From NCBI GenBank assembly GCA_000004985.1, contig GG738860.1: a DNA stretch of 64,000 bases; one strand, written 5' to 3'. A program made the position numbers and the translations under genes. How positions within the stretch are numbered: the stretch's first letter is position 1; the number at the start of each line of letters is the position of its first letter. The notes beneath the pieces are model-generated. The model was not told the origin of the DNA. It ran no database searches and saw only the letters and a list, made by a program, of their open reading frames with translations. This stretch comes from Naegleria gruberi (lineage: Eukaryota). This document shows positions 1-51,190 of the stretch, one piece after another.

Positions 1-473
1 ATTTTGATTGGCTGATTTTTGTAATTGATAATGACTAAGTACTCCTTCAAATTCTCGAATATATTTCACTCCTACAGCATCCTTCTCCCTTTTACATTGT
101 CCTAGAATTGGTATTGGATGAGGATTGACTTGCTTTAGAAAGGGAAAATTCCAAAAACCTTTAAAATCAATTCCCTGATCATGAGATCGTTTTGTTACAC
201 TCAAATTAAAATCATACTCTGATAGGTATTCAACAACTTGTGCTTCAAATCTTCTTCCCAATTCTTGTGATGATGATGATGTAATTATTTCTTCCGAATT
301 AACTTGATCCTCAGAAAGATTAATTGGAAATATTGACGAATATTTTCGTTTATCCAATGATAATCCATCAAAAAATCGTTCCGAAATAAATTGATGACTA
401 TTCAATGAATGATGACAATTTAATTTTCCTCTCCGAGAAACAAAGAATCTTTGAGAAAGAAGTTTTTTCATTT
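1..473 (-). CDS. Mrr-like (PD-(D/E)xK restriction-endonuclease fold) domain protein, N-terminal part; CDS continues beyond the left edge of the window
   Basis: ATG at 473..471, then an open minus-strand frame to position 1: MKKLLSQRFFVSRRGKLNCHHSL...SHDQGIDFKGFWNFPFLKQVNPHPIPILGQCKREKDAVGVKYIREFEGVL. The D..(Q/E)CK..V...REF.G pattern fits the Mrr_cat nuclease fold. It is missing from the ORF track only because it runs off the edge. Confidence 0.4.
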
Positions 474-651
474 TTTTAATTGTTTTTTAATAAATTTTTT
501 TATTATTCACTTTTATTAAATTCATAAATCGAAAAGTCTATACAATTTTAAAAGAAATTATTCAAATTAAGTTCTAAATATAACAATTAACATTTTTGTA
601 CTCTTAATTCCCAAAAAGAAGCTCTCAAGTTCATAGCAAAATCAAAAAAAA

Positions 652-4224: not shown

Positions 4225-7166
4225 TTATTCTCTCCAAAGACCCTCAAAACCCAAGTCAGTAATTTCTGTCAGAAGCCTTCTTGCATGTACAGAATTGTCA
4301 ATCAAACTTTCAAACGAAATATTATTTGAAGAGTTTCTCAATAAAAGTAATTCACCCAACTTGTTACCAATATGTTGCTCAAATGAATTTGATTCCTTCA
4401 TCCATTTTTCAACCGAATAAATATTCAATCTATCAATAACAGGATTTTTCTCATTCCTTGTTCTAGCTGATTCCTTATATGGTAGAGTAGCTAGATAGTA
4501 ACACAAAAACATATCCTTAACCTTAAAATATACTTCCTCAGACATGACTACAATGTTTGGTTTCGACCTTGAAATCATGTAATTGCAAATAGCAACAGTT
4601 TCACCAAAGCATGAAAAATTAATTCTGCTCGATGTTGAGCCAGTATATCCCAGAACAATTTTACCACTGGATATAGCAATTTTGAATGAGAAAGTTGACC
4701 CTCTGCATTCAAATTGTTTGATTACCTCAATTTTTTCTTGAAGTATTTGCTGAACTTCGTATCCAGTAACACAAGCTTTCAGTTCATGATTTTCCACTGG
4801 AAGGCTACTATCATTCCACAAGGCATACAACTTGACACCGTTAACAACACTCAAATCAAAAACAAATCCATCATTGGCGTGAACAGCTCCGGTTATTTCT
4901 GAAATGATAGAATTTAAAATTTGGCAATAGTATTCAGAGCCAACAACTGACTGAATTTCACCAACATCCTCCAAATCGACAATCATCATAGTCATTTGTT
5001 GCTTTTTCATTGGGAACATCGGTTCTGTCTCTGATGATTTCAACACTGACTTGACTACCAATTCGGGACAAAATAAGGAAAAGTAAAAGATTGATTTTCT
5101 AAACTTTTCCACAGAGCTTTCCATCTTTCTAATGTCATGAAAGACACTCGTTGTATCTACCACCAAAGTTCTGGTACCATCCAATCTCAAAATATTATTC
5201 ATAATCTTATTCAATCTCTGTAGGGGATAGGTGATGGTTTTAAGAATGATAATCAGTACAACAGTTCCTAAACTAACCAACAAGATTAGAACGATTACTG
5301 ATATCAAGCTCGTATTAATAATATACGTAAGGAAACCAGTGTGATCAGTAATAATAATGACCTTTACAAATAGGCCATGAATTAGAAAGGAGTTAGCACT
5401 GAAATAATAGTCATTTCCGTTCACTGAAATATCACCACTAAGTACTCTACTACTATCTGATTCACCATTAACGGAGGAGAAATTGGAAAAGTTATATGCT
5501 TGCATTAACTTGAAAATTTCATAGTAAATAGTCTCATTACTAAAGTCTTGTGGAAATGTCTGAATGGACTGTGGTTCATTTAAGACTTTGGAAGCCTTGT
5601 GATTAATGGAGGCTGCCAACACGTGATTAGACTTGTCTAGAATAATCACTGTATTACCGGGCTCAGTGGTTGAATTGAGAAAATCTGAAATAGATTTTGT
5701 AAGGTACTGAATACCAGCCACACCAACAAACTTTCCACTTGTTTGATCTCTCACAAGCAATGACTGAGTAATTGAGAGTCTTGACTCGGATTTGAAAATG
5801 TCACTCCACACAGTATACTGTTTGGATGGAGGAAAATCAAAACTAGTGGTATTCACACTGTCTGTAATAGCCTTAAACCAAGGTCTAACTAAAATATTGA
5901 ATGAAAAATTCTGAAACTTGTAGCTTGATGTTTGAATGACATTATCCACAATTTCATATCTCAAATGTGATGTTTTGCAGAAAGTCTTGTCTGTGAGATC
6001 AGATGGGTTTGTAATATTTGTTTGGATGCAAGGTATCAGTGTAAATCTGTCTGTACCCTTATTTGCGTAAAGAACTATCATATTATCAGCTCTTCCAAAG
6101 TAAATATAATCCAAGTGGTCCGTATATGAACCAGTCATTGACATTACCCTTGCCCATCTTGTTAAATTATAAGGATTGACTCCAAGAGCTACCAATTCCC
6201 CATGCAGAGTTTTAGTAATAAAGCCTGCTGGATTAACAAAGTAATGAACCTCATTCGATAATTTTTGATAGACCACAGAGTGTTGCAATAAGACAACTTG
6301 TCTAGCCGTCTATTTTAATATGATTGATTATCCATTATTTCAGAAAAGTATTTAGAATTAGAAAAGTTCACAAGATAAGTGAAATAACAAAGTTTCGATA
6401 ATATCCGCATCAAATAATGCAATGGTGAATATTTTTCATCAAGATAAGAATAACTACTTACGGTTTCTCCTGCACTAAATAAAACTCCAAAGGTTGTTCC
6501 TATTGATATGGCAGCCTGAAATAAAAAGACCAACACGAGCACATTCATCACTGTGAATAGTGAGGGAATAAGGGAGAAGAGTTTCTTAATAGCCTTTGCA
6601 CATTTGTGGAGGAGAGGATATGATTCTTCAGGATTATGTAATGTGCCAGTCTTATTTTCAGTTCCATGACTATCTGGTGGCTCAATTGATTGCTCCTTTG
6701 GTTGTTGATTGAGGATGATTTGATTATCATCGACCAGGCTATTCACTGGAGGTTGAGCCAAGCTTATTGTACTCCGCGAGGTAATAATGTTATTCTGTGA
6801 GGTTGCTGTCATTTCATTAAATGTTGATTCATCTATTATTCCATTGTAGTTGTTATTGTTATTATTGTTACAAAGTCTATTATTGTTAGAAGCAGTTGAA
6901 GTGGAAGAATCATGTTTTTCAACACCATGATTAACATTATGATTGAACAATGTACTGGGTGATGATATCATACTTGTATGATGATAATACTGTTGTTGAC
7001 CATTATTAGTATTTTGGGATGATGAAGATGATGACTGTATTCCTCTCATTTCGGAGAGCTCAATCGTCGACGATAGCGAGCCAGGATACACAGCATAGGA
7101 AGATGTTGTCTCAAAAGAACGCCGTATCGTGTGTTGAGAGAGGCCCTGTTGTTGACTTTGGGGCAT
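4225..7166 (-). CDS. Membrane sensor nucleotidyl cyclase, 2 exons: N-terminal low-complexity cytoplasmic region, TM, extracellular Cache/CHASE-like domain, TM, class III cyclase homology domain (ACG-like architecture)
   Basis: Exon 1 is 7166..6462 (235 codons, ends ...FSAGET at a GTAAGT donor). The intron 6461..6310 is 152 nt and AT-rich, with a TAG acceptor. Exon 2 is 6309..4225 in phase 0, continuing TARQVVLLQHSVVYQ. The C-terminus matches the cyclase homology domain: FKIAISSGKIVLGYTGSTSSRINFSCFGETVAICNYMIS...NIVVMSEEVY aligns to lrvGihsGpvvaGvvG...GdtVNtAsrMes...IhvSe. Two hydrophobic segments flank a ~330-aa extracellular domain. Confidence 0.6.
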
Positions 7167-8035: not shown

Positions 8036-9271
8036 TCAAGGATCACATGCATATTTGATAAAGTAATCCATTAATCTTTCGTAATTCATTAACTGAAAGA
8101 AATTCTTAACATTTTGAATTCTATTACCCATTGATGAATTATGGAAAGTGTACAAATCCATTTTCCTAACTCTTTTTGGTAAATTATACTCCATCTCAGT
8201 GATTGCATTACTCAGTGCTTCAGTATTATTCTCCTCCACATCGTATTCCTCAATTAATTGAATTACTTTTTGATATATTGGTTTTTGTAAAACTGATAAG
8301 AGCTTGTTAACCTTCTTTTCAAGTCTATGCGAAAGAATGTTTCTCATTAGTGGGTTTGAATAATTGTTGGAACATTTGAATACTTCTCTGAATGGTCTAT
8401 TACATCCAAAATTCGACAAAACTTTTCCAAGAATCATTAACCATATAGGTATATAATTCAAAGGACTCAAATCATATTGCTTCAATTCAGGAACTATTTG
8501 GTTCAATGCCTTTAGTAATGATTCTTCTCCACTTGTTTCGTATTGATCCTTTCTTTTTCTAAATATAAAAGCATCATGAAGAGGCAGTTCTCTTTCTTCC
8601 TCGTTTACATTGAAAATCTCATTGGATTGGAAATTTTTCAAATCATCTTGCAATGTTGAAATGTAAATGAAAAAGTTCTTTACATATCTGCTATATCCCA
8701 GAAAGTCCATATCGAATGAGAAATTTCTTCTCATAACATATTCTCCTACTCCAATTATTTCAAAAACTAATTTAATTTCAAATGAATCAAAATCCAACTC
8801 TGAGAATGCATACGAATCAAACAATTGAACCAATTCGTCACTATATGACAAGTTACAGTAATAAATTTCTTTAACTCTAATTCTTCCCATCACAAAACCA
8901 ATAAATTGTTTTAATATTCTCTCATCAAACAATGAAGAAATATTCGTGTCTACATTATTTTGAACAGAAATTGAGATAGGTCTTTGATTCGTAATGCTCT
9001 GTTTAATTTCTATTAAATTTGATAATTCATCCCTAATCAATTTCTTATAGATAGAACCACTCTCAGTACCCCCATCACTTGAGTAAATATATTTAGATTT
9101 AAATTCTGAGAGTAGACATTTCCATGATGGACCAGCCATTAAGCGAAAGTAATATTCCCATAAATTATCACTATTACACGCCTGAAACCATTCCGAACAG
9201 ACGAGGGAGTTTGTGATATGACTCCAGTCAAGAAACTGGAAGATGGAGATGAGGTTGTCTTGTACTATCAT
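8036..9271 (-). CDS. F-box domain protein
   Basis: The 411-aa ORF has an N-terminal F-box-like motif: LISIFQFLDWSHITNSLVCSEWFQACNSDNLW. No other domain was recognised. Confidence 0.5.
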   Translation of the reverse strand: MIVQDNLISIFQFLDWSHITNSLVCSEWFQACNSDNLWEYYFRLMAGPSWKCLLSEFKSKYIYSSDGGTESGSIYKKLIRDELSNLIEIKQSITNQRPISISVQNNVDTNISSLFDERILKQFIGFVMGRIRVKEIYYCNLSYSDELVQLFDSYAFSELDFDSFEIKLVFEIIGVGEYVMRRNFSFDMDFLGYSRYVKNFFIYISTLQDDLKNFQSNEIFNVNEEERELPLHDAFIFRKRKDQYETSGEESLLKALNQIVPELKQYDLSPLNYIPIWLMILGKVLSNFGCNRPFREVFKCSNNYSNPLMRNILSHRLEKKVNKLLSVLQKPIYQKVIQLIEEYDVEENNTEALSNAITEMEYNLPKRVRKMDLYTFHNSSMGNRIQNVKNFFQLMNYERLMDYFIKYACDP

Positions 9272-20837: not shown

Positions 20838-22362
20838 ATGTTGGCCATTCATCATCATCACAAACAACAAGAACACGAATTGGAAAGTCTAAAACAAAAT
20901 TATAAATTTAATATTGAAGCAGTTTTTGATCATGAAAGTGCTCGTGATTGTTTCCGAAAGTTTTTAAAGGATAATTTGAATGAAGATCCTTTCATGTTTT
21001 ATGAAATGGTTGAAAAGTATCAAAAAACAAGATTGGACAAGAATAGATTTGATATGGCTGTGGAAATTATGAATACTTTTATTGTTGTGAGTGCCAAACA
21101 TGAATTAAACTTGTCAATGACTATTAGAAATGATATTCTAAAGAATTGGAAGGTGATTCAGGAGCTAAATGAAGGGAAATCTGCTGAATTAATGGAATGT
21201 CCAACTGACTTGTTCCAAAAAGCTCAGAATGTCATCTTTTCCGAATTGAAACAAGATAATTTTCCAAGATTTATCGATTCTGAACAATTTGTAAAATATT
21301 TAAAGAAGGAAGCTAGAAAATCACAATTCAAGGGCTCACCAGCAACATTGTTAGACTTGTTGGGATCGAAAAAGGCAATGGAAAGGTCAGATAGTGGTCT
21401 ATCACATGAATTGACTGAATCCGGCTCTTTGGAAGACATGTCAGTGGTAGAAAACAAACCTTCAACTATTGCAGATAATGATAGACCTCTTGTTGATCCA
21501 CATTCTGTCTACATTTCATCAAAGGATTATGATATTGTGAATGAATTGATTTCTTCATTGAATGATAGTAGTAGATGGAAAGTAGTTGAAGAAAAGACAG
21601 GTATGAAAACATTGACCAGTGCTCATAATTATTATCTGAACCCATCAGATGGAGCTCTTCCTTTAATTTGTTTCACTGGTCTCGCTAAGGGAAATCACAA
21701 GGAATTATTTAATTTGATTTTTTCACAACATTTCGAAAAGAAAATGAGTGCTCTCCAAAAGAGGAAATTACAATTGGACTATATCAAAATTAATCCAGAG
21801 AATGGTGTGGATTATCCTAATTCAATAATTTACTCGGAACTCGATGTATGTATTCTTTTCAATTCTCAAATAATAATTAATTGAATTATTACAACAGACT
21901 CACTTTCCAATATCTAAAAGAGACCTAGTACTAGCCAAGACAGTTATACCAGATCTTTACAATCCAGAAACTGATGATTTTGATCGATATTCCATAATTC
22001 AGAAACCATGCACTCATCAAGATGCTCCAATCTCTAAGGAATTTATCAGAGTTTCACTCTTCTCAGCAATAATTGTAGAGAAAAAGACTAATGACACTTT
22101 GAGATACTACATGTTTGATTTTATGGATTTGAAAGGAAAAGTTCCAAAGAAACTCTTATCAGGAATTGCACGTTTTGCTGCTAAGGAATTTCATAAATAT
22201 CTCCAAAAACAATTTATCAATCCCAGAGATGGACGAATCAAATCACCCTCAGCCGATTCACCAACAGAAGAAGAATTATATAGCTCTGAAGGAATGGTTG
22301 AGTTGCTTCATGATCATATCAATTACATTCGAGAACACATTCTCCCAAAGAATACACTCTAA
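20838..22362 (+). CDS. RGS-domain protein with C-terminal START/Bet-v1-like lipid-binding domain, 2 exons (paralog A)
   Basis: Exon 1 is 20838..21845 (ends ...SELD at a GTATGT donor). The intron 21846..21897 is 52 nt. Exon 2 is 21898..22362. RGS signature: FDHESARDCFRKFLKDNLNEDPFMFYEMVEKYQK. The C-terminal exon (...YYMFDFMDLKGKVPKKLLSGIARFAAKEFHKYLQKQF) looks like a START domain end. A paralog lies at 49633..51190 on the minus strand. Confidence 0.65.
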
Positions 22363-22981
22363 TTTGTCTAAATTTAATTATGTTGTGAAGGACAAGTTTT
22401 TTGATAAACATAAATTCAAAGAGATTTATTATTGGAATCATAACTAAGGAAAGAAAGCATGTTATATGATGTTTGAAGTTTCAATTTCGATTTGATCAGA
22501 AAATAGAAAATGAGAAACCAAAACTTGCATCCATCAATTCAGGAGTTAAATATTCAATTTATAGAAGGGTGATCAACCTAATCAATATCTTCAAACAAAA
22601 CCTGAACCAACAAGATTCTGTCTTCGTTGCCTTCACTGTTCATACAGTCAAAGACTGTAGCGGGATTGTCGTCATATTCCTGGCAGGCTTCCCGTCCAAT
22701 GAAACCTAAAAGAATATCCAAAAATTAATGTTACTAAATTGTTAATAACTTAATTACTGAAAGTTTGTATTGAGTTGGTCGTGGATCGATTACAGAGCTT
22801 AATAGGTTAACCACTTTAAGTATTACTAAGTAGCATTAAGTTTTGCAAAGAAGTTCCATATTCTTTATATTCATTGCATTGATTTACCTTTGCTATTAAT
22901 CGTGACTCGTTATATTTGGAAAAGATTCGTCGTGCCAATGCTATCATGTTAATGGACACAATGGAAGATGATGAACTGAAT

Positions 22982-23100
22982 GGCTACGGCCATATCACGA
23001 TGAATGCACCTCATCCCGTCCGATTTGAGAAGTTAAGCATCGTCGAGCCACATCAGTACTGAGGTTGGAGACAACTTGGGAACCTGTGGTGCTGTAGTCT
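22982..23100 (+). rRNA. 5S ribosomal RNA gene (copy 1)
   Basis: GGCTACGGCCATATCACGATGAATGCACCTCATCCCGTCCGATTTGAGAAGTTAAGCATCGTCGAGCCACATCAGTACTGAGGTTGGAGACAACTTGGGAACCTGTGGTGCTGTAGTCT is 119 nt. Helix I pairs 5' GGCTACGG with 3' CTGTAGTC. It is very similar to D. discoideum 5S (CATCCCGTTCGATCTGATAAGT...AGTACTCTGGTTGGAGACAAC...GGGTGCTGTATACT). A T5 run follows at 23114..23118, consistent with a Pol III terminator. Confidence 0.85.
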
Positions 23101-23617
23101 ATTTAAATTCAACTTTTTAGATGTCGATTTTCAGAACAATTTGAAAGTTCAATAAACTTGTGAATAATTAATGCTTCAAAGCTTATAAAAAGTTTAACCA
23201 CAATTATTAATAGATTTTAAATTAATTGAATACATAGAGAGATCAACATTCATCATTCCATAGCAATCACACTGCAATCCAACAACCAAAGGTATCAGCA
23301 AAAGGCAACTTATGGGTTAGGGTATTCGATTGCTGTGAAGTGGGTACACTAGCTCAGTTGTCTTTTTTTCTATTTCCCAATCAATGAGTGCTTTTGGAGT
23401 ATGTTGATACATTTATTATTTACAAACTTTTTTGTTACAAATTTCAATCGAAATGCCTGAGAAATTTTTTAAAATGAAAGTGCCCAATCATTGATTATTT
23501 TCTCTATGGTTTTAAGAAATGAAACTTTGAAAATTGAATCTTAGCTAGATTACATATAATTTATCATATAATGATAAAATTAAATGTCAAATATAGGAGA
23601 TGGAGTCAAAAATTAAT

Positions 23618-23688
23618 CTCGAGTGCCGGGAATTGAACCCGGGTCGCCAGAGTGACAGTCTGGAATGCTACCACTATACCACACCCGA
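23618..23688 (-). tRNA. tRNA-Asp (anticodon GUC), copy 1
   Basis: Minus strand: TCGGGTG TG GTAT AGTGGTA GCAT T CCAGA CTGTCAC TCTGG CGAC CCGGG TTCAATT CCCGG CACTCGA G. It has a 7-bp acceptor stem (one G-U), a perfect anticodon stem, U33, GTC anticodon, A37, and a T-arm with TTCAATT loop. One D-stem mismatch. A T5 run follows the 3' end. Confidence 0.8.
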
Positions 23689-24251
23689 TTTCACATGTTG
23701 TATCACCAGTAACAGTATTTGTAGTTGTTCAAACGGATTACCATAAAAGGAACCTTAGTGTTTCTTTTTAATATAATTATACTTACATATATGTATACCT
23801 ACTGAGAATGGATCCATACAATCGATTACTCCAACGAACTAAATTTTGAATCTGCTAATTGTCAACAAATGATATTGTTAAACAAAATACAAACACTATG
23901 AAATGCACAACTTCATTCTAAACATTGTATTAGAAAAATTGGAAATAGGAAAGAATCGGTAAAATTGTCTCATAGTGATTCTCTCTTGTTTATGGCCATA
24001 AATACTTTTTTGGACAGTTTCGTATGAAATTGGGTTTTGTAATATTTATTTTCTATGACATGTCATGCATAATTTCTTGTACTTGCCATCTCAATGGCAC
24101 ACAAGGGTCACAACAAATTTTTTCTTCAAGAGGCACCACCTCCTTCTTGCTTGTTATTTCCAAATTTAAACTATGCGTGCTGTCAATAAACTGAAAAGCA
24201 AATGTCAAATGTTTTCTCTTCATCGCTTAAAAAAACAAACACACAATAACA

Positions 24252-33029: not shown

Positions 33030-33079
33030 NNNNNNNNNNNNNNNNNNNNNNNNNNNNNNNNNNNNNNNNNNNNNNNNNN
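33030..33079. other. Assembly gap (50 N)
   Basis: A run of exactly 50 N separates the receptor gene fragment from the second 5S/tRNA unit. Confidence 1.
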
Positions 33080-33087
33080 AACTGAAT

Positions 33088-33206
33088 GGCTACGGCCATA
33101 TCACGATGAATGCACCTCATCCCGTCCGATTTGAGAAGTTAAGCATCGTCGAGCCACATCAGTACTGAGGTTGGAGACAACTTGGGAACCTGTGGTGCTG
33201 TAGTCT
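33088..33206 (+). rRNA. 5S ribosomal RNA gene (copy 2)
   Basis: Identical to 22982..23100 (offset 10106 bp). Confidence 0.85.
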
Positions 33207-33723
33207 ATTTAAATTCAACTTTTTAGATGTCGATTTTCAGAACAATTTGAAAGTTCAATAAACTTGTGAATAATTAATGCTTCAAAGCTTATAAAAAGTT
33301 TAACCACAATTATTAATAGATTTTAAATTAATTGAATACATAGAGAGATCAACATTCATCATTCCATAGCAATCACACTGCAATCCAACAACCAAAGGTA
33401 TCAGCAAAAGGCAACTTATGGGTTAGGGTATTCGATTGCTGTGAAGTGGGTACACTAGCTCAGTTGTCTTTTTTTCTATTTCCCAATCAATGAGTGCTTT
33501 TGGAGTATGTTGATACATTTATTATTTACAAACTTTTTTGTTACAAATTTCAATCGAAATGCCTGAGAAATTTTTTAAAATGAAAGTGCCCAATCATTGA
33601 TTATTTTCTCTATGGTTTTAAGAAATGAAACTTTGAAAATTGAATCTTAGCTAGATTACATATAATTTATCATATAATGATAAAATTAAATGTCAAATAT
33701 AGGAGATGGAGTCAAAAATTAAT

Positions 33724-33794
33724 CTCGAGTGCCGGGAATTGAACCCGGGTCGCCAGAGTGACAGTCTGGAATGCTACCACTATACCACACCCGA
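33724..33794 (-). tRNA. tRNA-Asp (anticodon GUC), copy 2
   Basis: Identical to 23618..23688. Confidence 0.8.
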
Positions 33795-34261
33795 TTTCAC
33801 ATGTTGTATCACCAGTAACAGTATTTGTAGTTGTTCAAACGGATTACCATAAAAGGAACCTTAGTGTTTCTTTTTAATATAATTATACTTACATATATGT
33901 ATACCTACTGAGAATGGATCCATACAATCGATTACTCCAACGAACTAAATTTTGAATCTGCTAATTGTCAACAAATGATATTGTTAAACAAAATACAAAC
34001 ACTATGAAATGCACAACTTCATTCTAAACATTGTATTAGAAAAATTGGAAATAGGAAAGAATCGGTAAAATTGTCTCATAGTGATTCTCTCTTGTTTATG
34101 GCCATAAATACTTTTTTGGACAGTTTCGTATGAAATTGGGTTTTGTAATATTTATTTTCTATGACATGTCATGCATAATTTCTTGTACTTGCCATCTCAA
34201 TGGCACACAAGGGTCACAACAAATTTTTTCTTCAAGAGGCACCANCTCCTTCTTGCTTGTT

Positions 34262-37200
34262 NNNNNNNNNNNNNNNNNNNNNNNNNNNNNNNNNNNNNNN
34301 NNNNNNNNNNNNNNNNNNNNNNNNNNNNNNNNNNNNNNNNNNNNNNNNNNNNNNNNNNNNNNNNNNNNNNNNNNNNNNNNNNNNNNNNNNNNNNNNNNNN
34401 NNNNNNNNNNNNNNNNNNNNNNNNNNNNNNNNNNNNNNNNNNNNNNNNNNNNNNNNNNNNNNNNNNNNNNNNNNNNNNNNNNNNNNNNNNNNNNNNNNNN
34501 NNNNNNNNNNNNNNNNNNNNNNNNNNNNNNNNNNNNNNNNNNNNNNNNNNNNNNNNNNNNNNNNNNNNNNNNNNNNNNNNNNNNNNNNNNNNNNNNNNNN
34601 NNNNNNNNNNNNNNNNNNNNNNNNNNNNNNNNNNNNNNNNNNNNNNNNNNNNNNNNNNNNNNNNNNNNNNNNNNNNNNNNNNNNNNNNNNNNNNNNNNNN
34701 NNNNNNNNNNNNNNNNNNNNNNNNNNNNNNNNNNNNNNNNNNNNNNNNNNNNNNNNNNNNNNNNNNNNNNNNNNNNNNNNNNNNNNNNNNNNNNNNNNNN
34801 NNNNNNNNNNNNNNNNNNNNNNNNNNNNNNNNNNNNNNNNNNNNNNNNNNNNNNNNNNNNNNNNNNNNNNNNNNNNNNNNNNNNNNNNNNNNNNNNNNNN
34901 NNNNNNNNNNNNNNNNNNNNNNNNNNNNNNNNNNNNNNNNNNNNNNNNNNNNNNNNNNNNNNNNNNNNNNNNNNNNNNNNNNNNNNNNNNNNNNNNNNNN
35001 NNNNNNNNNNNNNNNNNNNNNNNNNNNNNNNNNNNNNNNNNNNNNNNNNNNNNNNNNNNNNNNNNNNNNNNNNNNNNNNNNNNNNNNNNNNNNNNNNNNN
35101 NNNNNNNNNNNNNNNNNNNNNNNNNNNNNNNNNNNNNNNNNNNNNNNNNNNNNNNNNNNNNNNNNNNNNNNNNNNNNNNNNNNNNNNNNNNNNNNNNNNN
35201 NNNNNNNNNNNNNNNNNNNNNNNNNNNNNNNNNNNNNNNNNNNNNNNNNNNNNNNNNNNNNNNNNNNNNNNNNNNNNNNNNNNNNNNNNNNNNNNNNNNN
35301 NNNNNNNNNNNNNNNNNNNNNNNNNNNNNNNNNNNNNNNNNNNNNNNNNNNNNNNNNNNNNNNNNNNNNNNNNNNNNNNNNNNNNNNNNNNNNNNNNNNN
35401 NNNNNNNNNNNNNNNNNNNNNNNNNNNNNNNNNNNNNNNNNNNNNNNNNNNNNNNNNNNNNNNNNNNNNNNNNNNNNNNNNNNNNNNNNNNNNNNNNNNN
35501 NNNNNNNNNNNNNNNNNNNNNNNNNNNNNNNNNNNNNNNNNNNNNNNNNNNNNNNNNNNNNNNNNNNNNNNNNNNNNNNNNNNNNNNNNNNNNNNNNNNN
35601 NNNNNNNNNNNNNNNNNNNNNNNNNNNNNNNNNNNNNNNNNNNNNNNNNNNNNNNNNNNNNNNNNNNNNNNNNNNNNNNNNNNNNNNNNNNNNNNNNNNN
35701 NNNNNNNNNNNNNNNNNNNNNNNNNNNNNNNNNNNNNNNNNNNNNNNNNNNNNNNNNNNNNNNNNNNNNNNNNNNNNNNNNNNNNNNNNNNNNNNNNNNN
35801 NNNNNNNNNNNNNNNNNNNNNNNNNNNNNNNNNNNNNNNNNNNNNNNNNNNNNNNNNNNNNNNNNNNNNNNNNNNNNNNNNNNNNNNNNNNNNNNNNNNN
35901 NNNNNNNNNNNNNNNNNNNNNNNNNNNNNNNNNNNNNNNNNNNNNNNNNNNNNNNNNNNNNNNNNNNNNNNNNNNNNNNNNNNNNNNNNNNNNNNNNNNN
36001 NNNNNNNNNNNNNNNNNNNNNNNNNNNNNNNNNNNNNNNNNNNNNNNNNNNNNNNNNNNNNNNNNNNNNNNNNNNNNNNNNNNNNNNNNNNNNNNNNNNN
36101 NNNNNNNNNNNNNNNNNNNNNNNNNNNNNNNNNNNNNNNNNNNNNNNNNNNNNNNNNNNNNNNNNNNNNNNNNNNNNNNNNNNNNNNNNNNNNNNNNNNN
36201 NNNNNNNNNNNNNNNNNNNNNNNNNNNNNNNNNNNNNNNNNNNNNNNNNNNNNNNNNNNNNNNNNNNNNNNNNNNNNNNNNNNNNNNNNNNNNNNNNNNN
36301 NNNNNNNNNNNNNNNNNNNNNNNNNNNNNNNNNNNNNNNNNNNNNNNNNNNNNNNNNNNNNNNNNNNNNNNNNNNNNNNNNNNNNNNNNNNNNNNNNNNN
36401 NNNNNNNNNNNNNNNNNNNNNNNNNNNNNNNNNNNNNNNNNNNNNNNNNNNNNNNNNNNNNNNNNNNNNNNNNNNNNNNNNNNNNNNNNNNNNNNNNNNN
36501 NNNNNNNNNNNNNNNNNNNNNNNNNNNNNNNNNNNNNNNNNNNNNNNNNNNNNNNNNNNNNNNNNNNNNNNNNNNNNNNNNNNNNNNNNNNNNNNNNNNN
36601 NNNNNNNNNNNNNNNNNNNNNNNNNNNNNNNNNNNNNNNNNNNNNNNNNNNNNNNNNNNNNNNNNNNNNNNNNNNNNNNNNNNNNNNNNNNNNNNNNNNN
36701 NNNNNNNNNNNNNNNNNNNNNNNNNNNNNNNNNNNNNNNNNNNNNNNNNNNNNNNNNNNNNNNNNNNNNNNNNNNNNNNNNNNNNNNNNNNNNNNNNNNN
36801 NNNNNNNNNNNNNNNNNNNNNNNNNNNNNNNNNNNNNNNNNNNNNNNNNNNNNNNNNNNNNNNNNNNNNNNNNNNNNNNNNNNNNNNNNNNNNNNNNNNN
36901 NNNNNNNNNNNNNNNNNNNNNNNNNNNNNNNNNNNNNNNNNNNNNNNNNNNNNNNNNNNNNNNNNNNNNNNNNNNNNNNNNNNNNNNNNNNNNNNNNNNN
37001 NNNNNNNNNNNNNNNNNNNNNNNNNNNNNNNNNNNNNNNNNNNNNNNNNNNNNNNNNNNNNNNNNNNNNNNNNNNNNNNNNNNNNNNNNNNNNNNNNNNN
37101 NNNNNNNNNNNNNNNNNNNNNNNNNNNNNNNNNNNNNNNNNNNNNNNNNNNNNNNNNNNNNNNNNNNNNNNNNNNNNNNNNNNNNNNNNNNNNNNNNNNN

Positions 37201-40200
37201 NNNNNNNNNNNNNNNNNNNNNNNNNNNNNNNNNNNNNNNNNNNNNNNNNNNNNNNNNNNNNNNNNNNNNNNNNNNNNNNNNNNNNNNNNNNNNNNNNNNN
37301 NNNNNNNNNNNNNNNNNNNNNNNNNNNNNNNNNNNNNNNNNNNNNNNNNNNNNNNNNNNNNNNNNNNNNNNNNNNNNNNNNNNNNNNNNNNNNNNNNNNN
37401 NNNNNNNNNNNNNNNNNNNNNNNNNNNNNNNNNNNNNNNNNNNNNNNNNNNNNNNNNNNNNNNNNNNNNNNNNNNNNNNNNNNNNNNNNNNNNNNNNNNN
37501 NNNNNNNNNNNNNNNNNNNNNNNNNNNNNNNNNNNNNNNNNNNNNNNNNNNNNNNNNNNNNNNNNNNNNNNNNNNNNNNNNNNNNNNNNNNNNNNNNNNN
37601 NNNNNNNNNNNNNNNNNNNNNNNNNNNNNNNNNNNNNNNNNNNNNNNNNNNNNNNNNNNNNNNNNNNNNNNNNNNNNNNNNNNNNNNNNNNNNNNNNNNN
37701 NNNNNNNNNNNNNNNNNNNNNNNNNNNNNNNNNNNNNNNNNNNNNNNNNNNNNNNNNNNNNNNNNNNNNNNNNNNNNNNNNNNNNNNNNNNNNNNNNNNN
37801 NNNNNNNNNNNNNNNNNNNNNNNNNNNNNNNNNNNNNNNNNNNNNNNNNNNNNNNNNNNNNNNNNNNNNNNNNNNNNNNNNNNNNNNNNNNNNNNNNNNN
37901 NNNNNNNNNNNNNNNNNNNNNNNNNNNNNNNNNNNNNNNNNNNNNNNNNNNNNNNNNNNNNNNNNNNNNNNNNNNNNNNNNNNNNNNNNNNNNNNNNNNN
38001 NNNNNNNNNNNNNNNNNNNNNNNNNNNNNNNNNNNNNNNNNNNNNNNNNNNNNNNNNNNNNNNNNNNNNNNNNNNNNNNNNNNNNNNNNNNNNNNNNNNN
38101 NNNNNNNNNNNNNNNNNNNNNNNNNNNNNNNNNNNNNNNNNNNNNNNNNNNNNNNNNNNNNNNNNNNNNNNNNNNNNNNNNNNNNNNNNNNNNNNNNNNN
38201 NNNNNNNNNNNNNNNNNNNNNNNNNNNNNNNNNNNNNNNNNNNNNNNNNNNNNNNNNNNNNNNNNNNNNNNNNNNNNNNNNNNNNNNNNNNNNNNNNNNN
38301 NNNNNNNNNNNNNNNNNNNNNNNNNNNNNNNNNNNNNNNNNNNNNNNNNNNNNNNNNNNNNNNNNNNNNNNNNNNNNNNNNNNNNNNNNNNNNNNNNNNN
38401 NNNNNNNNNNNNNNNNNNNNNNNNNNNNNNNNNNNNNNNNNNNNNNNNNNNNNNNNNNNNNNNNNNNNNNNNNNNNNNNNNNNNNNNNNNNNNNNNNNNN
38501 NNNNNNNNNNNNNNNNNNNNNNNNNNNNNNNNNNNNNNNNNNNNNNNNNNNNNNNNNNNNNNNNNNNNNNNNNNNNNNNNNNNNNNNNNNNNNNNNNNNN
38601 NNNNNNNNNNNNNNNNNNNNNNNNNNNNNNNNNNNNNNNNNNNNNNNNNNNNNNNNNNNNNNNNNNNNNNNNNNNNNNNNNNNNNNNNNNNNNNNNNNNN
38701 NNNNNNNNNNNNNNNNNNNNNNNNNNNNNNNNNNNNNNNNNNNNNNNNNNNNNNNNNNNNNNNNNNNNNNNNNNNNNNNNNNNNNNNNNNNNNNNNNNNN
38801 NNNNNNNNNNNNNNNNNNNNNNNNNNNNNNNNNNNNNNNNNNNNNNNNNNNNNNNNNNNNNNNNNNNNNNNNNNNNNNNNNNNNNNNNNNNNNNNNNNNN
38901 NNNNNNNNNNNNNNNNNNNNNNNNNNNNNNNNNNNNNNNNNNNNNNNNNNNNNNNNNNNNNNNNNNNNNNNNNNNNNNNNNNNNNNNNNNNNNNNNNNNN
39001 NNNNNNNNNNNNNNNNNNNNNNNNNNNNNNNNNNNNNNNNNNNNNNNNNNNNNNNNNNNNNNNNNNNNNNNNNNNNNNNNNNNNNNNNNNNNNNNNNNNN
39101 NNNNNNNNNNNNNNNNNNNNNNNNNNNNNNNNNNNNNNNNNNNNNNNNNNNNNNNNNNNNNNNNNNNNNNNNNNNNNNNNNNNNNNNNNNNNNNNNNNNN
39201 NNNNNNNNNNNNNNNNNNNNNNNNNNNNNNNNNNNNNNNNNNNNNNNNNNNNNNNNNNNNNNNNNNNNNNNNNNNNNNNNNNNNNNNNNNNNNNNNNNNN
39301 NNNNNNNNNNNNNNNNNNNNNNNNNNNNNNNNNNNNNNNNNNNNNNNNNNNNNNNNNNNNNNNNNNNNNNNNNNNNNNNNNNNNNNNNNNNNNNNNNNNN
39401 NNNNNNNNNNNNNNNNNNNNNNNNNNNNNNNNNNNNNNNNNNNNNNNNNNNNNNNNNNNNNNNNNNNNNNNNNNNNNNNNNNNNNNNNNNNNNNNNNNNN
39501 NNNNNNNNNNNNNNNNNNNNNNNNNNNNNNNNNNNNNNNNNNNNNNNNNNNNNNNNNNNNNNNNNNNNNNNNNNNNNNNNNNNNNNNNNNNNNNNNNNNN
39601 NNNNNNNNNNNNNNNNNNNNNNNNNNNNNNNNNNNNNNNNNNNNNNNNNNNNNNNNNNNNNNNNNNNNNNNNNNNNNNNNNNNNNNNNNNNNNNNNNNNN
39701 NNNNNNNNNNNNNNNNNNNNNNNNNNNNNNNNNNNNNNNNNNNNNNNNNNNNNNNNNNNNNNNNNNNNNNNNNNNNNNNNNNNNNNNNNNNNNNNNNNNN
39801 NNNNNNNNNNNNNNNNNNNNNNNNNNNNNNNNNNNNNNNNNNNNNNNNNNNNNNNNNNNNNNNNNNNNNNNNNNNNNNNNNNNNNNNNNNNNNNNNNNNN
39901 NNNNNNNNNNNNNNNNNNNNNNNNNNNNNNNNNNNNNNNNNNNNNNNNNNNNNNNNNNNNNNNNNNNNNNNNNNNNNNNNNNNNNNNNNNNNNNNNNNNN
40001 NNNNNNNNNNNNNNNNNNNNNNNNNNNNNNNNNNNNNNNNNNNNNNNNNNNNNNNNNNNNNNNNNNNNNNNNNNNNNNNNNNNNNNNNNNNNNNNNNNNN
40101 NNNNNNNNNNNNNNNNNNNNNNNNNNNNNNNNNNNNNNNNNNNNNNNNNNNNNNNNNNNNNNNNNNNNNNNNNNNNNNNNNNNNNNNNNNNNNNNNNNNN

Positions 40201-43200
40201 NNNNNNNNNNNNNNNNNNNNNNNNNNNNNNNNNNNNNNNNNNNNNNNNNNNNNNNNNNNNNNNNNNNNNNNNNNNNNNNNNNNNNNNNNNNNNNNNNNNN
40301 NNNNNNNNNNNNNNNNNNNNNNNNNNNNNNNNNNNNNNNNNNNNNNNNNNNNNNNNNNNNNNNNNNNNNNNNNNNNNNNNNNNNNNNNNNNNNNNNNNNN
40401 NNNNNNNNNNNNNNNNNNNNNNNNNNNNNNNNNNNNNNNNNNNNNNNNNNNNNNNNNNNNNNNNNNNNNNNNNNNNNNNNNNNNNNNNNNNNNNNNNNNN
40501 NNNNNNNNNNNNNNNNNNNNNNNNNNNNNNNNNNNNNNNNNNNNNNNNNNNNNNNNNNNNNNNNNNNNNNNNNNNNNNNNNNNNNNNNNNNNNNNNNNNN
40601 NNNNNNNNNNNNNNNNNNNNNNNNNNNNNNNNNNNNNNNNNNNNNNNNNNNNNNNNNNNNNNNNNNNNNNNNNNNNNNNNNNNNNNNNNNNNNNNNNNNN
40701 NNNNNNNNNNNNNNNNNNNNNNNNNNNNNNNNNNNNNNNNNNNNNNNNNNNNNNNNNNNNNNNNNNNNNNNNNNNNNNNNNNNNNNNNNNNNNNNNNNNN
40801 NNNNNNNNNNNNNNNNNNNNNNNNNNNNNNNNNNNNNNNNNNNNNNNNNNNNNNNNNNNNNNNNNNNNNNNNNNNNNNNNNNNNNNNNNNNNNNNNNNNN
40901 NNNNNNNNNNNNNNNNNNNNNNNNNNNNNNNNNNNNNNNNNNNNNNNNNNNNNNNNNNNNNNNNNNNNNNNNNNNNNNNNNNNNNNNNNNNNNNNNNNNN
41001 NNNNNNNNNNNNNNNNNNNNNNNNNNNNNNNNNNNNNNNNNNNNNNNNNNNNNNNNNNNNNNNNNNNNNNNNNNNNNNNNNNNNNNNNNNNNNNNNNNNN
41101 NNNNNNNNNNNNNNNNNNNNNNNNNNNNNNNNNNNNNNNNNNNNNNNNNNNNNNNNNNNNNNNNNNNNNNNNNNNNNNNNNNNNNNNNNNNNNNNNNNNN
41201 NNNNNNNNNNNNNNNNNNNNNNNNNNNNNNNNNNNNNNNNNNNNNNNNNNNNNNNNNNNNNNNNNNNNNNNNNNNNNNNNNNNNNNNNNNNNNNNNNNNN
41301 NNNNNNNNNNNNNNNNNNNNNNNNNNNNNNNNNNNNNNNNNNNNNNNNNNNNNNNNNNNNNNNNNNNNNNNNNNNNNNNNNNNNNNNNNNNNNNNNNNNN
41401 NNNNNNNNNNNNNNNNNNNNNNNNNNNNNNNNNNNNNNNNNNNNNNNNNNNNNNNNNNNNNNNNNNNNNNNNNNNNNNNNNNNNNNNNNNNNNNNNNNNN
41501 NNNNNNNNNNNNNNNNNNNNNNNNNNNNNNNNNNNNNNNNNNNNNNNNNNNNNNNNNNNNNNNNNNNNNNNNNNNNNNNNNNNNNNNNNNNNNNNNNNNN
41601 NNNNNNNNNNNNNNNNNNNNNNNNNNNNNNNNNNNNNNNNNNNNNNNNNNNNNNNNNNNNNNNNNNNNNNNNNNNNNNNNNNNNNNNNNNNNNNNNNNNN
41701 NNNNNNNNNNNNNNNNNNNNNNNNNNNNNNNNNNNNNNNNNNNNNNNNNNNNNNNNNNNNNNNNNNNNNNNNNNNNNNNNNNNNNNNNNNNNNNNNNNNN
41801 NNNNNNNNNNNNNNNNNNNNNNNNNNNNNNNNNNNNNNNNNNNNNNNNNNNNNNNNNNNNNNNNNNNNNNNNNNNNNNNNNNNNNNNNNNNNNNNNNNNN
41901 NNNNNNNNNNNNNNNNNNNNNNNNNNNNNNNNNNNNNNNNNNNNNNNNNNNNNNNNNNNNNNNNNNNNNNNNNNNNNNNNNNNNNNNNNNNNNNNNNNNN
42001 NNNNNNNNNNNNNNNNNNNNNNNNNNNNNNNNNNNNNNNNNNNNNNNNNNNNNNNNNNNNNNNNNNNNNNNNNNNNNNNNNNNNNNNNNNNNNNNNNNNN
42101 NNNNNNNNNNNNNNNNNNNNNNNNNNNNNNNNNNNNNNNNNNNNNNNNNNNNNNNNNNNNNNNNNNNNNNNNNNNNNNNNNNNNNNNNNNNNNNNNNNNN
42201 NNNNNNNNNNNNNNNNNNNNNNNNNNNNNNNNNNNNNNNNNNNNNNNNNNNNNNNNNNNNNNNNNNNNNNNNNNNNNNNNNNNNNNNNNNNNNNNNNNNN
42301 NNNNNNNNNNNNNNNNNNNNNNNNNNNNNNNNNNNNNNNNNNNNNNNNNNNNNNNNNNNNNNNNNNNNNNNNNNNNNNNNNNNNNNNNNNNNNNNNNNNN
42401 NNNNNNNNNNNNNNNNNNNNNNNNNNNNNNNNNNNNNNNNNNNNNNNNNNNNNNNNNNNNNNNNNNNNNNNNNNNNNNNNNNNNNNNNNNNNNNNNNNNN
42501 NNNNNNNNNNNNNNNNNNNNNNNNNNNNNNNNNNNNNNNNNNNNNNNNNNNNNNNNNNNNNNNNNNNNNNNNNNNNNNNNNNNNNNNNNNNNNNNNNNNN
42601 NNNNNNNNNNNNNNNNNNNNNNNNNNNNNNNNNNNNNNNNNNNNNNNNNNNNNNNNNNNNNNNNNNNNNNNNNNNNNNNNNNNNNNNNNNNNNNNNNNNN
42701 NNNNNNNNNNNNNNNNNNNNNNNNNNNNNNNNNNNNNNNNNNNNNNNNNNNNNNNNNNNNNNNNNNNNNNNNNNNNNNNNNNNNNNNNNNNNNNNNNNNN
42801 NNNNNNNNNNNNNNNNNNNNNNNNNNNNNNNNNNNNNNNNNNNNNNNNNNNNNNNNNNNNNNNNNNNNNNNNNNNNNNNNNNNNNNNNNNNNNNNNNNNN
42901 NNNNNNNNNNNNNNNNNNNNNNNNNNNNNNNNNNNNNNNNNNNNNNNNNNNNNNNNNNNNNNNNNNNNNNNNNNNNNNNNNNNNNNNNNNNNNNNNNNNN
43001 NNNNNNNNNNNNNNNNNNNNNNNNNNNNNNNNNNNNNNNNNNNNNNNNNNNNNNNNNNNNNNNNNNNNNNNNNNNNNNNNNNNNNNNNNNNNNNNNNNNN
43101 NNNNNNNNNNNNNNNNNNNNNNNNNNNNNNNNNNNNNNNNNNNNNNNNNNNNNNNNNNNNNNNNNNNNNNNNNNNNNNNNNNNNNNNNNNNNNNNNNNNN

Positions 43201-43231
43201 NNNNNNNNNNNNNNNNNNNNNNNNNNNNNNN
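34262..43231. other. Assembly gap (8970 N)
   Basis: Continuous N run. All giant ORFs reported across it (34130..43276, 34159..43266, 34171..43431, 34197..43394, 34200..45386, 34232..43288) are poly-X artefacts. Confidence 1.
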
Positions 43232-49632: not shown

Positions 49633-51190
49633 TTAAAGATTCAATGAGTCTCTTATTGCTTTGTTTTGCTCTTTTAAAACTTCAAGAGATCCATCCATTG
49701 ACAAGAGCTCTTCATCTACATCCTTTGTCTTTTCAATATCCTTCTTTACCATTTTGTGCATGTCACTAGCAAACATTTTGGATAATCCTGCAACAATACC
49801 CTTTGGAACAGAACCTTTCATATCCATGAAATCAAAAATGTAATATCTGGTCGAGTTTGTTGTTTGTCTCTCAATAACAACAGCTGTGTAGAGCGACACT
49901 CGAATAAAATCCTTCTTGATTGGTGAGTCATCGTGAGCTGAAGGCTTTGAAATAATTACAAATCTATCAAATTCATCCGTTTCCTCATTATATTTATCAG
50001 GTATGATGGTTCTAGCCATGACAATTTCTCTCTTAGTGAATGGGAACCCAATCTATTAGTTTTAAGTTTTACAAATAGTATTATACATAGTAAACTTAAT
50101 CACCCAACCAAATTGAATTTTGAAAACTTACATCCAACTGATGGTAAATAATAGTATTAGGATATTCAATTCCCTTTTCATGATTAATCTTTAAATATTC
50201 CAATTGGAATTTTCTCTTATAGAATGAGTTAATCTTCTTTTCAAATGATTTCTTAAAAAATAGATTGAAAATACTCTTGTGATCTCCACTCATCAATCCA
50301 GTAAAACAAATCACTGGTAGGGCTTCTTCACCTAAATTCATATAATAATTATTAACACTGGTAAGTGTTTTGGTTCCAGTCTTTTCATCTGCCACTTTCC
50401 ACCTGTTGCTATCGTTCAATGTTGATATTAATTCTTTCAAAATTTCATAATCCTTTGGAGTGACATAGATTGAGGTATTATCAATTAGGGGTCTATCTTT
50501 ATCCTTGATGGGTGTACTCTTTGCTATTTCCTCTATAAAGCTATCACTATCACTCGAATCCTGTGAAATGCTACTGTCTGATCTATCCAATGCTTTTTTG
50601 GTCCCTAATTGTTCAAGTAATTGTGACGGAGAGTCCTTGTATTCTGGCTTTTTAGCTTCCTTCTTTAAAAAGGATTTAAATTGTTCAGATTCGGTAAATC
50701 TTGGAAAATTATCTTGTTTCAATTCGGAAAAGATGACGTTCTGAGCTTTTTGGAACAAGTCCGATGGACATTCTATTAATTCAACTGCTTTTCCTTCATT
50801 AAATTCTTGAGTTAAACTCCAAATCTTTAGAATATCTTTCCTAATGGTCATTGACAAGTTTAATTCATGTTTGGCACTCACAACAATAAAAGTATTCATA
50901 ATTTCCACAGCCATATCAAATCTATTCTTGTCCAATCTTGTTTTTTGATACTTTTCAACCATTTCATAAAACATGAAAGGATCTTCATTCAAATTATCCT
51001 TTAAAAACTTTCGGAAACAATCACGAGCACTTTCATGATCAAAAACTGCTTCAATATTGAATTTATATCGTTGAATGAGAGAATCGTCCAAACCAACTGT
51101 TGGTTTCTGCGGTTGGCCTGACAGGTTATTCAACATTTTTTTCTTATTAGTTTCGGATGAGATAACTATTGTCTTCCAACACAATACCAC
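49633..51190 (-). CDS. RGS-domain protein with C-terminal START-like domain, 2 exons (paralog B, inverted relative to 20838..22362)
   Basis: Exon 1 is 51190..50132 (ends ...YHQLD at a GTAAGT donor). The intron 50131..50053 has a TAG acceptor. Exon 2 is 50052..49633 (IGFPFTKREIVMARTIIPDKY...). The RGS core YKFNIEAVFDHESARDCFRKFLKDNLNEDPFMFYEMVEKYQKTRLDKNRFDMAVEIMNTFIVVSAKHELNLSMTIR is identical in protein to paralog A. Exon-2 START-like sequence: YYIFDFMDMKGSVPKGIVAGLSKMFASDMHKMVKK. Confidence 0.65.

Follow-up and report, generated by a model that had tools for sequence, protein, structure and literature searches.

NAEGRDRAFT_66037 of Naegleria gruberi: a bacterial-type transmembrane receptor with a degenerate class III cyclase domain and a probably non-catalytic output

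The stretch of DNA studied here (the window) comprises 64,000 nucleotides of contig GG738860.1 of the heterolobosean Naegleria gruberi (assembly GCA_000004985.1). Its minus strand carries the locus NAEGRDRAFT_66037, which consists of two exons and encodes, according to the translation of the joined coding sequence, a product of 929 amino acids followed by a stop codon. This product is constituted by a low-complexity N-terminus, a first transmembrane segment (TM1), a dCache_1 ectodomain, a second transmembrane segment (TM2), a HAMP-like segment, a cyclase-transducer helix, a class III cyclase-homology domain (CHD), and a helical tail. The protein is probably a conserved receptor pseudo-cyclase of bacterial type, whose output would be non-catalytic. 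The coordinates of all features are collected in Table 1.

Gene model and domain order

Two open reading frames (ORFs) of the minus strand underlie the gene. The downstream ORF (4225..6288, 687 amino acids) begins with TTG and has no ATG close by, and the upstream ORF (6315..7166, 283 amino acids) begins with ATG. An earlier reading of this DNA, made from its letters (the sequence-only reading), had joined both ORFs in phase through an intron of 152 nucleotides (6461..6310) to give a protein of 929 residues, and all these coordinates, as well as the lack of an ATG near the start of the 687-residue ORF, are correct. Two further AG sites located nearby (6302 and 6297) are out of frame with the donor at 6461. 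Since an in-frame TAA lies 12 nucleotides 5' of the ATG at 7166, exon 1 allows no start further 5' than this ATG.

The 5' exon had been presented as newly joined. However, the public N. gruberi model, an 890-residue 'predicted protein' (XP_002678915.1, EFC46171.1, D2VAZ9, NAEGRDRAFT_66037), already unites both exons at this very junction, reading ...VLFSAGET/TARQVVLLQ... (the slash marks the junction), and shows 100% identity with the 929-residue protein across 96% of the length (P0001). The sole difference is the start, which is Met40 (7049) in the public model and 7166 in the longer one; the 39 N-terminal residues added in this way are poorly conserved. The junction is free of gaps in the alignment with four orthologues, namely those of N. 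lovaniensis (P0002 and P0003), N. fowleri (P0153), and Willaertia magna (P0004). Likewise in support of the junction, TM1, encoded by exon 1, is among the segments best conserved between orthologues. In FDP41_005042, the N. fowleri orthologue, whose exon structure was rebuilt from its genomic locus, there are three introns. The first (56 nucleotides, GTAAGT...CAG, phase 0, at ...FFEGST/LSDN...) occupies the alignment column in which the N. gruberi intron also falls. Judged from the public model, the orthologue alignment and the intron position in N. fowleri, the splice junction goes beyond chance. Because the gene and its junction are already publicly annotated, they are not new, and neither is the structural part of the present finding.

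The introns of FDP41_005042 (L001 6001-8873) measure 56, 92, and 64 nucleotides, and the first alone is common to N. gruberi. The other two, one within HAMP helix 1 and one within the C-terminal tail, have no counterpart in the N. gruberi gene, indicating intron loss or gain inside the genus Naegleria.

The hydrophobic segments TM1 and TM2 enclose about 330 residues that carry eight N-glycosylation sequons, in agreement with the topology previously proposed for this protein, in which a 330-residue extracellular domain lies between two membrane segments. A Pfam scan of the whole protein matched Guanylate_cyc (PF00211) alone; of the other families that the sequence-only reading had named for an HMMER search, neither CHASE nor dCache (PF02743) was matched directly at E <= 1, nor was HAMP. 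The Willaertia orthologue P0004 gave, for the sensor, a weak MCP-like_PDC_1 match alone (Pfam, E 0.0056). Since direct Pfam scans missed these domains, the sensor and the HAMP region were assigned by transitive evidence, profile-profile comparison and fold.

The hhalign comparison of a profile of five orthologous ectodomains with bacterial dCache_1 ectodomains yielded a probability of 98.9%, with an E value of 1.2e-17 over 272 columns that include the RPW(Y/F) motif. The AlphaFold2 (AF2) model of the ectodomain (mean predicted local distance difference test, pLDDT, 84.6; predicted template modelling score, pTM, 0.84) begins with a long helix, after which come two alpha/beta modules. Without exception, the best 50 PDB matches of this model in Foldseek are ligand-binding domains from receptors of bacteria; nearly all of these receptors are chemoreceptors such as PctA, Tlp3, Mlp24/37, TlpC, and others, and several matches are expressly annotated as dCache. 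On this profile and fold evidence, the ectodomain is a double Cache (dCache_1) and not a detectable CHASE domain.

The segment following TM2 can be aligned, column by column, to the part of the bacterial protein P0017 that Pfam recognises as HAMP (373-424 on query 355-408, exon-2 numbering). It starts with ITYPLQRL and forms a helix, a loop and a second helix in the AF2 model, the Pfam HAMP family itself not being matched. The next helix, YFSLFCPELVVK, is the counterpart of the FSKYVPxxVVK found in the family. The C-terminal tail is also helical in the AF2 model (642-661, 666-672, and 674-685, exon-2 numbering). The complete domain order therefore follows from the sensor and relay evidence taken together.

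The cyclase-homology domain and its conservation

The presence of a class III cyclase domain, which the sequence-only reading had recognised, is supported. PF00211 scores 24.1 bits over residues 672-831, which is marginal with respect to its cut-off of 21.9; the CHD is divergent enough for the orthologues P0002 and P0003 to give no match and for P0004 to reach 13.8 bits, below the cut-off. A profile of the subfamily matches CyaB at E 1.6e-10 (hmmsearch against the PDB). The AF2 model of 694 residues has a pLDDT of 80, and Foldseek aligns its CHD with CyaB (3r5g), CyaC (1wc0), Cya2 (2w01), RhGC (5oyh and 6sir), and Rv1625c (4p2f) at target-normalised template modelling scores of 0.77-0.85. The CHD fold is thus intact in the predicted structure.

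Class III cyclases form head-to-tail dimers, in which each protomer takes its share of the metal, substrate and transition-state roles. The Asp of FSDIxxFT binds the first metal, DKxIGD provides the substrate Lys and the second metal Asp, RxNYT the phosphate Arg and the Thr, and GDxVNxAxR the transition-state Asn and Arg. These four motifs, canonical for class IIIb, constitute the consensus of the family to which NAEGRDRAFT_66037 belongs, as determined with 144 homologues plus the query. For the D-K-D-R-T-N-R set, the consensus residue is present in 128/145 sequences (first Asp), 121/145 (phosphate Arg), 102/145 (Thr), 124/145 (Asn), and 121/145 (transition-state Arg), the counts for the Lys and the second Asp being n/a.

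The catalytic columns of the query were located by phmmer alignment to CyaB, by alignment of the subfamily profile to CyaB and CyaC, and by two MAFFT alignments, one of the 144 homologues plus the query and the other of 19 sequences. All of them agree that the transition-state Asn is replaced by Ala and the Arg by Tyr, so that the motif reads GETVAICNY, as had been noticed from the sequence. The substrate Lys is replaced by Asp or Leu, according to gap placement. The GD metal motif is absent from the β2-β3 hairpin, which reads DLSVVNGVK, and no alignment offers an acidic residue for the second metal site; the earlier remark that an iGDaY motif was not evident therefore stands. The sequence-only reading had also considered that the catalytic residues might be present at shifted positions. 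Of these residues, the alignments recover the first Asp (D680), but not the second Asp, the Asn, or the Arg. As far as these alignments indicate, the residues missing from the CHD are the substrate Lys, the second metal Asp, both transition-state residues (Asn and Arg), and the KGK that contacts the γ-phosphate.

Relatives of the protein were collected by an exhaustive HMMER search with the exon-2 protein against 1.84 billion representatives, which produced 1526 matches. The family surfaced through this search; word-indexed protein searches gave hardly anything beyond the protein and its N. fowleri orthologue. Four close relatives show 36-45% identity, after which values fall to 22-30%, and the nearest matches are heterolobosean and bacterial. 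Bacterial matches whose alignment starts midway in the ectodomain and spans the cyclase contain the Pfam domains dCache_1, HAMP and Guanylate_cyc. The same catalytic losses are found in P0002, P0003, P0004, P0005, and P0153; the species concerned are N. lovaniensis (two paralogues), N. fowleri, and W. magna, and one sequence is a metagenomic fragment.

Four species have intact full-length ORFs. Between the five full-length orthologues, pairwise identity averages 55% in TM1, 50% in TM2, 48% in HAMP plus linker, 43% in the CHD, 39% in the tail, 34% in the ectodomain, and 21% in the N-terminus. The CHD, the HAMP region and the membrane segments are thus better conserved than the sensor. By this segment-wise identity, the degenerate CHD is still constrained and not decaying, and the loss of its catalytic residues is old. 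Within the clade, the first metal position holds Asp or Glu, and neither the hairpin Asn490 (exon-2 numbering) nor the phosphate Arg varies. The positions once occupied by the transition-state Asn and Arg are free to drift (A/A/A/A/D and Y/L/V/V/C, respectively), their substitutes not being conserved even among orthologues.

Table 1. Features of NAEGRDRAFT_66037 and of its neighbours (nucleotide positions in the window, residues of the 929-residue protein)
Feature	Position	Strand	Residues	Content or evidence
Exon 1	6462..7166	minus	1-235	705 nucleotides, 235 codons, ends in phase 0; N-terminus, TM1, first 4 ectodomain residues
Intron	6310..6461	minus		152 nucleotides, phase 0, GTAAGT...AAAATAG; donor G 6461, acceptor end 6310
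Exon 2	4225..6309	minus	236-929	plus stop codon at 4225-4227
Q/N/S-rich low-complexity cytosolic N-terminus	6573-7166	minus	1-198	sequence composition
TM1	6474-6572	minus	199-231	hydrophobic segment
dCache_1-type double-Cache ectodomain	5329..6309	minus	236-562 (plus 232-235 from exon 1)	hhalign and fold
RPWF motif in ectodomain	5875-5886	minus		
TM2	5245..5328	minus	563-590	hydrophobic segment, hydropathy peak 3.39; continuous helix with next segment in AF2 model
HAMP-like helix-loop-helix (ITYPLQRLNKIM...)	within 5011..5244	minus	591-643	alignment to P0017 HAMP; AF2 model
Cyclase-transducer helix YFSLFCPELVVK, then linker	5050-5085 (linker within 5011..5244)	minus	644-655	
Degenerate class III CHD	4480..5010	minus	669-845	Pfam, PDB alignments, MAFFT, Foldseek
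First metal Asp	4963-4989	minus	680	kept; nucleotide positions are those of MMIVDLEDV
β2-β3 hairpin DLSVVNGVK	4831-4857	minus	720-728	no Lys, no second metal Asp, 3-residue insertion relative to DKxIGD
Phosphate Arg	within 4615-4632	minus	797	kept
Substrate Thr				Ser in query, conservative change
Transition-state Asn/Arg, GETVAICNY	4579-4605	minus	804-812	Asn to Ala, Arg to Tyr
γ-phosphate Lys (KGK)	4465-4485	minus		lost, LPYKESA instead
C-terminal helical tail (...IYSVEKWMKESNSFEQHIGNKL...)	4228..4479	minus	846-929	kept in the family, including bacterial relatives
HAD-like hydrolase, 292 residues	3307-4185	plus		PF00702 E 1.2e-9; hydrophobic N-terminus
G/Y/N-rich small protein, 134 residues	7409-7813	minus		signal-like N-terminus; no Pfam match
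411-residue protein	8036-9271	minus		weak F-box-like match

Proposed output and competing explanations

The loss of catalytic residues from a fold that has been kept supports the suggestion of the sequence-only reading that NAEGRDRAFT_66037 is a receptor pseudo-cyclase. The protein would dimerise, as HAMP and class III CHD proteins generally do, and a small ligand would bind the membrane-distal Cache module. Since the relay elements are intact and conserved, the signal would be transmitted from TM2 to HAMP, the transducer helix and the CHD dimer. Going by its residues, the homodimer is very probably inactive; being unable to make cyclic AMP (cAMP) or cyclic GMP (cGMP), it would have a non-catalytic output. 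A tentative candidate for this output, and the likeliest one, is that the receptor, depending on its ligand, pairs with or sequesters paralogues from the same expanded family that are catalytically competent or half-competent. In this way, the receptor could tune their cyclase output through heterodimerisation, either by silencing them or by donating a half-site. Alternatively, the conserved C-terminal tail might recruit other proteins.

The nature of the ligand can be partly delimited. The amino-acid motif of dCache_1AA sensors comprises a first part, Y121, R126, and W128, and a second part, Y144 and D173, in PctA numbering (PMC8915833). In the hhalign register with the bacterial profile, read together with the sequence, the query has F, R, W at the first part and F (WSDIF) and Q (GVAGIQY) at the second. 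A dCache_1AA amino-acid sensor was therefore rejected and an amino-acid ligand is unlikely, because the Tyr and Asp that bind the amino group are not kept. The Arg and Trp of the RPW motif, which contact the carboxylate, are kept, so that a carboxylate-bearing ligand is possible. The heterolobosean family shows a plain bacterial-type dCache_1 without VWA insertion, being either an exception or outside the set detected in PMC8915833.

Paralogues with which the receptor might pair exist in N. gruberi. All four found among the 150 nearest representatives, namely NAEGRDRAFT_81707, NAEGRDRAFT_63463, NAEGRDRAFT_52378, and NAEGRDRAFT_53252 (P0011, P0012, P0019, and P0045), are degenerate, each one differently, and each lacks at least two catalytic residues. 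NAEGRDRAFT_52378 (P0019) keeps the Lys, Thr, Asn, and Arg, but has lost the first Asp and carries 'EG' in place of 'GD'. Because it keeps the first group of residues without the metal Asp residues, it looks like the opposite half-site. The N. lovaniensis protein P0050 shows a similar pattern. The Willaertia proteins P0007, P0015, P0020, and P0096 have the canonical catalytic set.

Several observations weigh against a receptor pseudo-cyclase that acts on its paralogues. Some non-canonical class III cyclases retain activity, and inactivity is deduced here from residues. The three-residue insertion of the hairpin is placed differently between alignments. The pattern conserved in the metal half is unlike that of a site without any role in nucleotide handling, and nucleotide binding or a half-site role may be possible on this sequence evidence. 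The proposed interaction concerns a putative partner, and tblastn searches with the sensor and the CHD detected no paralogue or partner gene in the 64,000-nucleotide window. A search for the gene identifiers found no paper naming them in the literature library covered.

The most serious competitor states that the protein is a half-site donor of a heterodimeric cyclase. In a C1-like manner, Asp680, the hairpin Asn and Arg797 would be offered to a paralogue bringing the Lys, Thr, Asn, and Arg, so that two different extracellular sensors would control one composite active site. The clade indeed conserves the metal-half positions (Asp/Glu, the hairpin Asn and the Arg) while the other half drifts, a complementary-looking paralogue exists in NAEGRDRAFT_52378 with P0050 as its similar counterpart in N. 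lovaniensis, and the four N. gruberi paralogues mentioned above are all degenerate in some way. However, the second metal Asp is missing in every alignment, and replacement of this residue normally abolishes the activity of class III cyclases; moreover, NAEGRDRAFT_52378 is not adjacent to the gene. The sequence-only reading had also envisaged a cyclase in need of a partner subunit. This possibility is weakened by the damage found in both half-sites: since one half has lost its Lys, Asn, Arg, and KGK and the other, which binds the metals, its second Asp, no ordinary complementation would restore a canonical site. A half-site role is thus less likely than the pseudo-cyclase interpretation, and we regard it as rather improbable. 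An active homodimeric adenylate or guanylate cyclase with non-canonical catalytic residues is far more difficult to accept. In its favour are the retained fold, first Asp and phosphate Arg, the purifying selection on the CHD, and a Pfam score just over the gathering threshold. However, the catalytic set is without its Lys, second Asp, Asn, Arg, and KGK, and the residues replacing the Asn and the Arg differ among orthologues, which makes this explanation very improbable.

Two other explanations find hardly any room. Orthology or functional equivalence with ACG of Dictyostelium is suggested by the same layout, with a ~330-residue ectodomain between two membrane segments and a class III CHD. Nevertheless, the sensor is dCache_1 and not CHASE, a probable HAMP domain is present, the closest relatives beyond Heterolobosea are bacterial dCache-HAMP cyclases, catalytic residues have been lost, and ACG has been reported as unconserved even in other Amoebozoa. 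On this domain content and these nearest matches, ACG orthology and a dictyostelid origin were rejected, the source being Naegleria, a heterolobosean. The marginal score of the CHD and the low-complexity N-terminus could point to a decaying pseudogene or an artefact of the gene model. Against this, the 929 codons are open with one clean intron, intact full-length orthologues with a conserved intron position exist in four species, and conservation peaks in the membrane segments, HAMP, and CHD. On the basis of the intact frame, the orthologues and the conserved domains, this explanation was also rejected; like the previous one, it is extremely unlikely.

A bolder interpretation, to which we give little weight, is that Heterolobosea turned the bacterial dCache-HAMP-cyclase into separately encoded and mutually complementing receptor subunits, or that the clade is a ligand-gated inhibitor poisoning active partners. 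If complementation were true, this clade would give the metal/phosphate half-site and paralogues such as NAEGRDRAFT_52378 the half with Lys, Thr, Asn, and Arg. The heterodimer would make cAMP only upon sensing two different extracellular ligands, acting as a coincidence detector, and the C1/C2 arrangement would have been reinvented independently and between molecules.

The cyclase repertoire of the genus Naegleria is very large, with at least 81 members (PMC9928731). The present clade of sensor-bearing 'cyclases' is catalytically degenerate, although conservation extends over both Naegleria and Willaertia, the pathogen N. fowleri among them, and this has consequences for such counts. Since both the clade and the N. 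gruberi paralogues are degenerate, the number of 'cyclases' would overstate the capacity of Naegleria-type amoebae to produce cAMP or cGMP, and the results point to regulation through pseudo-enzymes or heterodimers. The record of bacterial-type Cache sensors in eukaryotes is also extended past the single Naegleria protein seen by Pfam models, which miss the Cache domain in NAEGRDRAFT_66037 and its paralogues. The general combination of Cache and bacterial-type cyclase in Naegleria is already on record. The literature search found no description of a dCache-HAMP clade present throughout Naegleria and Willaertia with a degenerate but constrained CHD, nor of widespread degeneracy among the N. gruberi paralogues, and a search for 'pseudo-cyclase' in Naegleria gave nothing specific. 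Both points rely entirely on sequence and predicted structure.

The genes adjacent to NAEGRDRAFT_66037 (Table 1) have no evident functional link to the receptor. The genes flanking FDP41_005042 (kinase, IntS14-like, PPR, and DENN) are unlike the N. gruberi neighbours. The window as a whole is AT-rich, with a GC content of about 33%. A segment of 1182 nucleotides occurs twice at 99.9% identity (22974-24155 and 33080-34261). Runs of N occupy positions 33030-33079, 34262-43231 (about 9 kb), and 44789-44960, the second copy of the segment being wedged between two of them; this repeat is more suggestive of an assembly artefact, or of a haplotig at a scaffold gap, than of a duplication of biological origin. 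An inverted pair of segments of about 940 nucleotides with 79.6% identity (20901-21833 and 50144-51067) probably represents a paralogous gene fragment, or a repeat, that has diverged. A tandem repeat at 56422-57096 has a period of 72 nucleotides, 9.4 copies and 81% matches, a period of 216 being also scored. The length of 72 nucleotides fits a coding repeat of 24 residues, possibly of the leucine-rich-repeat type.

Comparison with known systems

The sequence-only reading had described the protein as ACG-like. The Dictyostelium ACG is a receptor-type cyclase with a CHASE ectodomain and a single cytosolic class III CHD (PMC4399386). By this description, both proteins have an extracellular sensor of about 300 residues between membrane segments and one cytosolic class III CHD. 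However, ACG is an active, osmosensing CHASE cyclase of Amoebozoa, while NAEGRDRAFT_66037 is a heterolobosean protein with dCache_1, a HAMP-like segment, bacterial relatives, and a degenerate CHD. The likeness holds for the layout only, and kinship is not supported.

The systems most closely related are the bacterial dCache_1-HAMP-class IIIb adenylate cyclases, such as P0017, P0018, and P0025. They have the same order of parts from the membrane segments to the helical tail, with HAMP at the place of the HAMP-like segment, are homologous to NAEGRDRAFT_66037 over the ectodomain and the CHD, and share with it the RPW(Y/F) motif and the FSKYVP-type helix. In contrast, the bacterial proteins keep the full D-K-D-R-T-N-R set, whereas NAEGRDRAFT_66037 has lost the K, D, N, R, and KGK and carries a three-residue insertion in the hairpin. 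Its long eukaryotic N-terminus rich in Q/N/S, its N-glycosylation sequons and its intron also set it apart from the bacterial relatives, and its Cache domain and HAMP-like segment are too divergent to be matched by Pfam. One 'bacterial-type adenylate cyclase' with a Cache domain had previously been noted in Naegleria (Upadhyay et al. 2016, PMC4822843).

CHDs partly stripped of the catalytic set and yet conserved for dimer function are also found in the C1/C2 domains of mammalian transmembrane adenylate cyclases (tmAC) and in the α/β chains of soluble guanylate cyclase (sGC). The sGC chains are among the best Foldseek matches of the CHD model. In tmAC and sGC, each partner keeps one complete half-site. 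NAEGRDRAFT_66037 differs from them in that the Lys, Asn, and Arg of one half have disappeared and its metal half is without the second Asp, and also in that each CHD belongs to its own sensor-bearing polypeptide.

Finally, degenerate GGDEF domains and pseudokinase receptors keep an enzyme fold under selection after the loss of catalysis and have allosteric or scaffolding outputs. The families are unrelated to that of NAEGRDRAFT_66037, GGDEF being distantly similar in fold, and the likeness among them is one of functional analogy.

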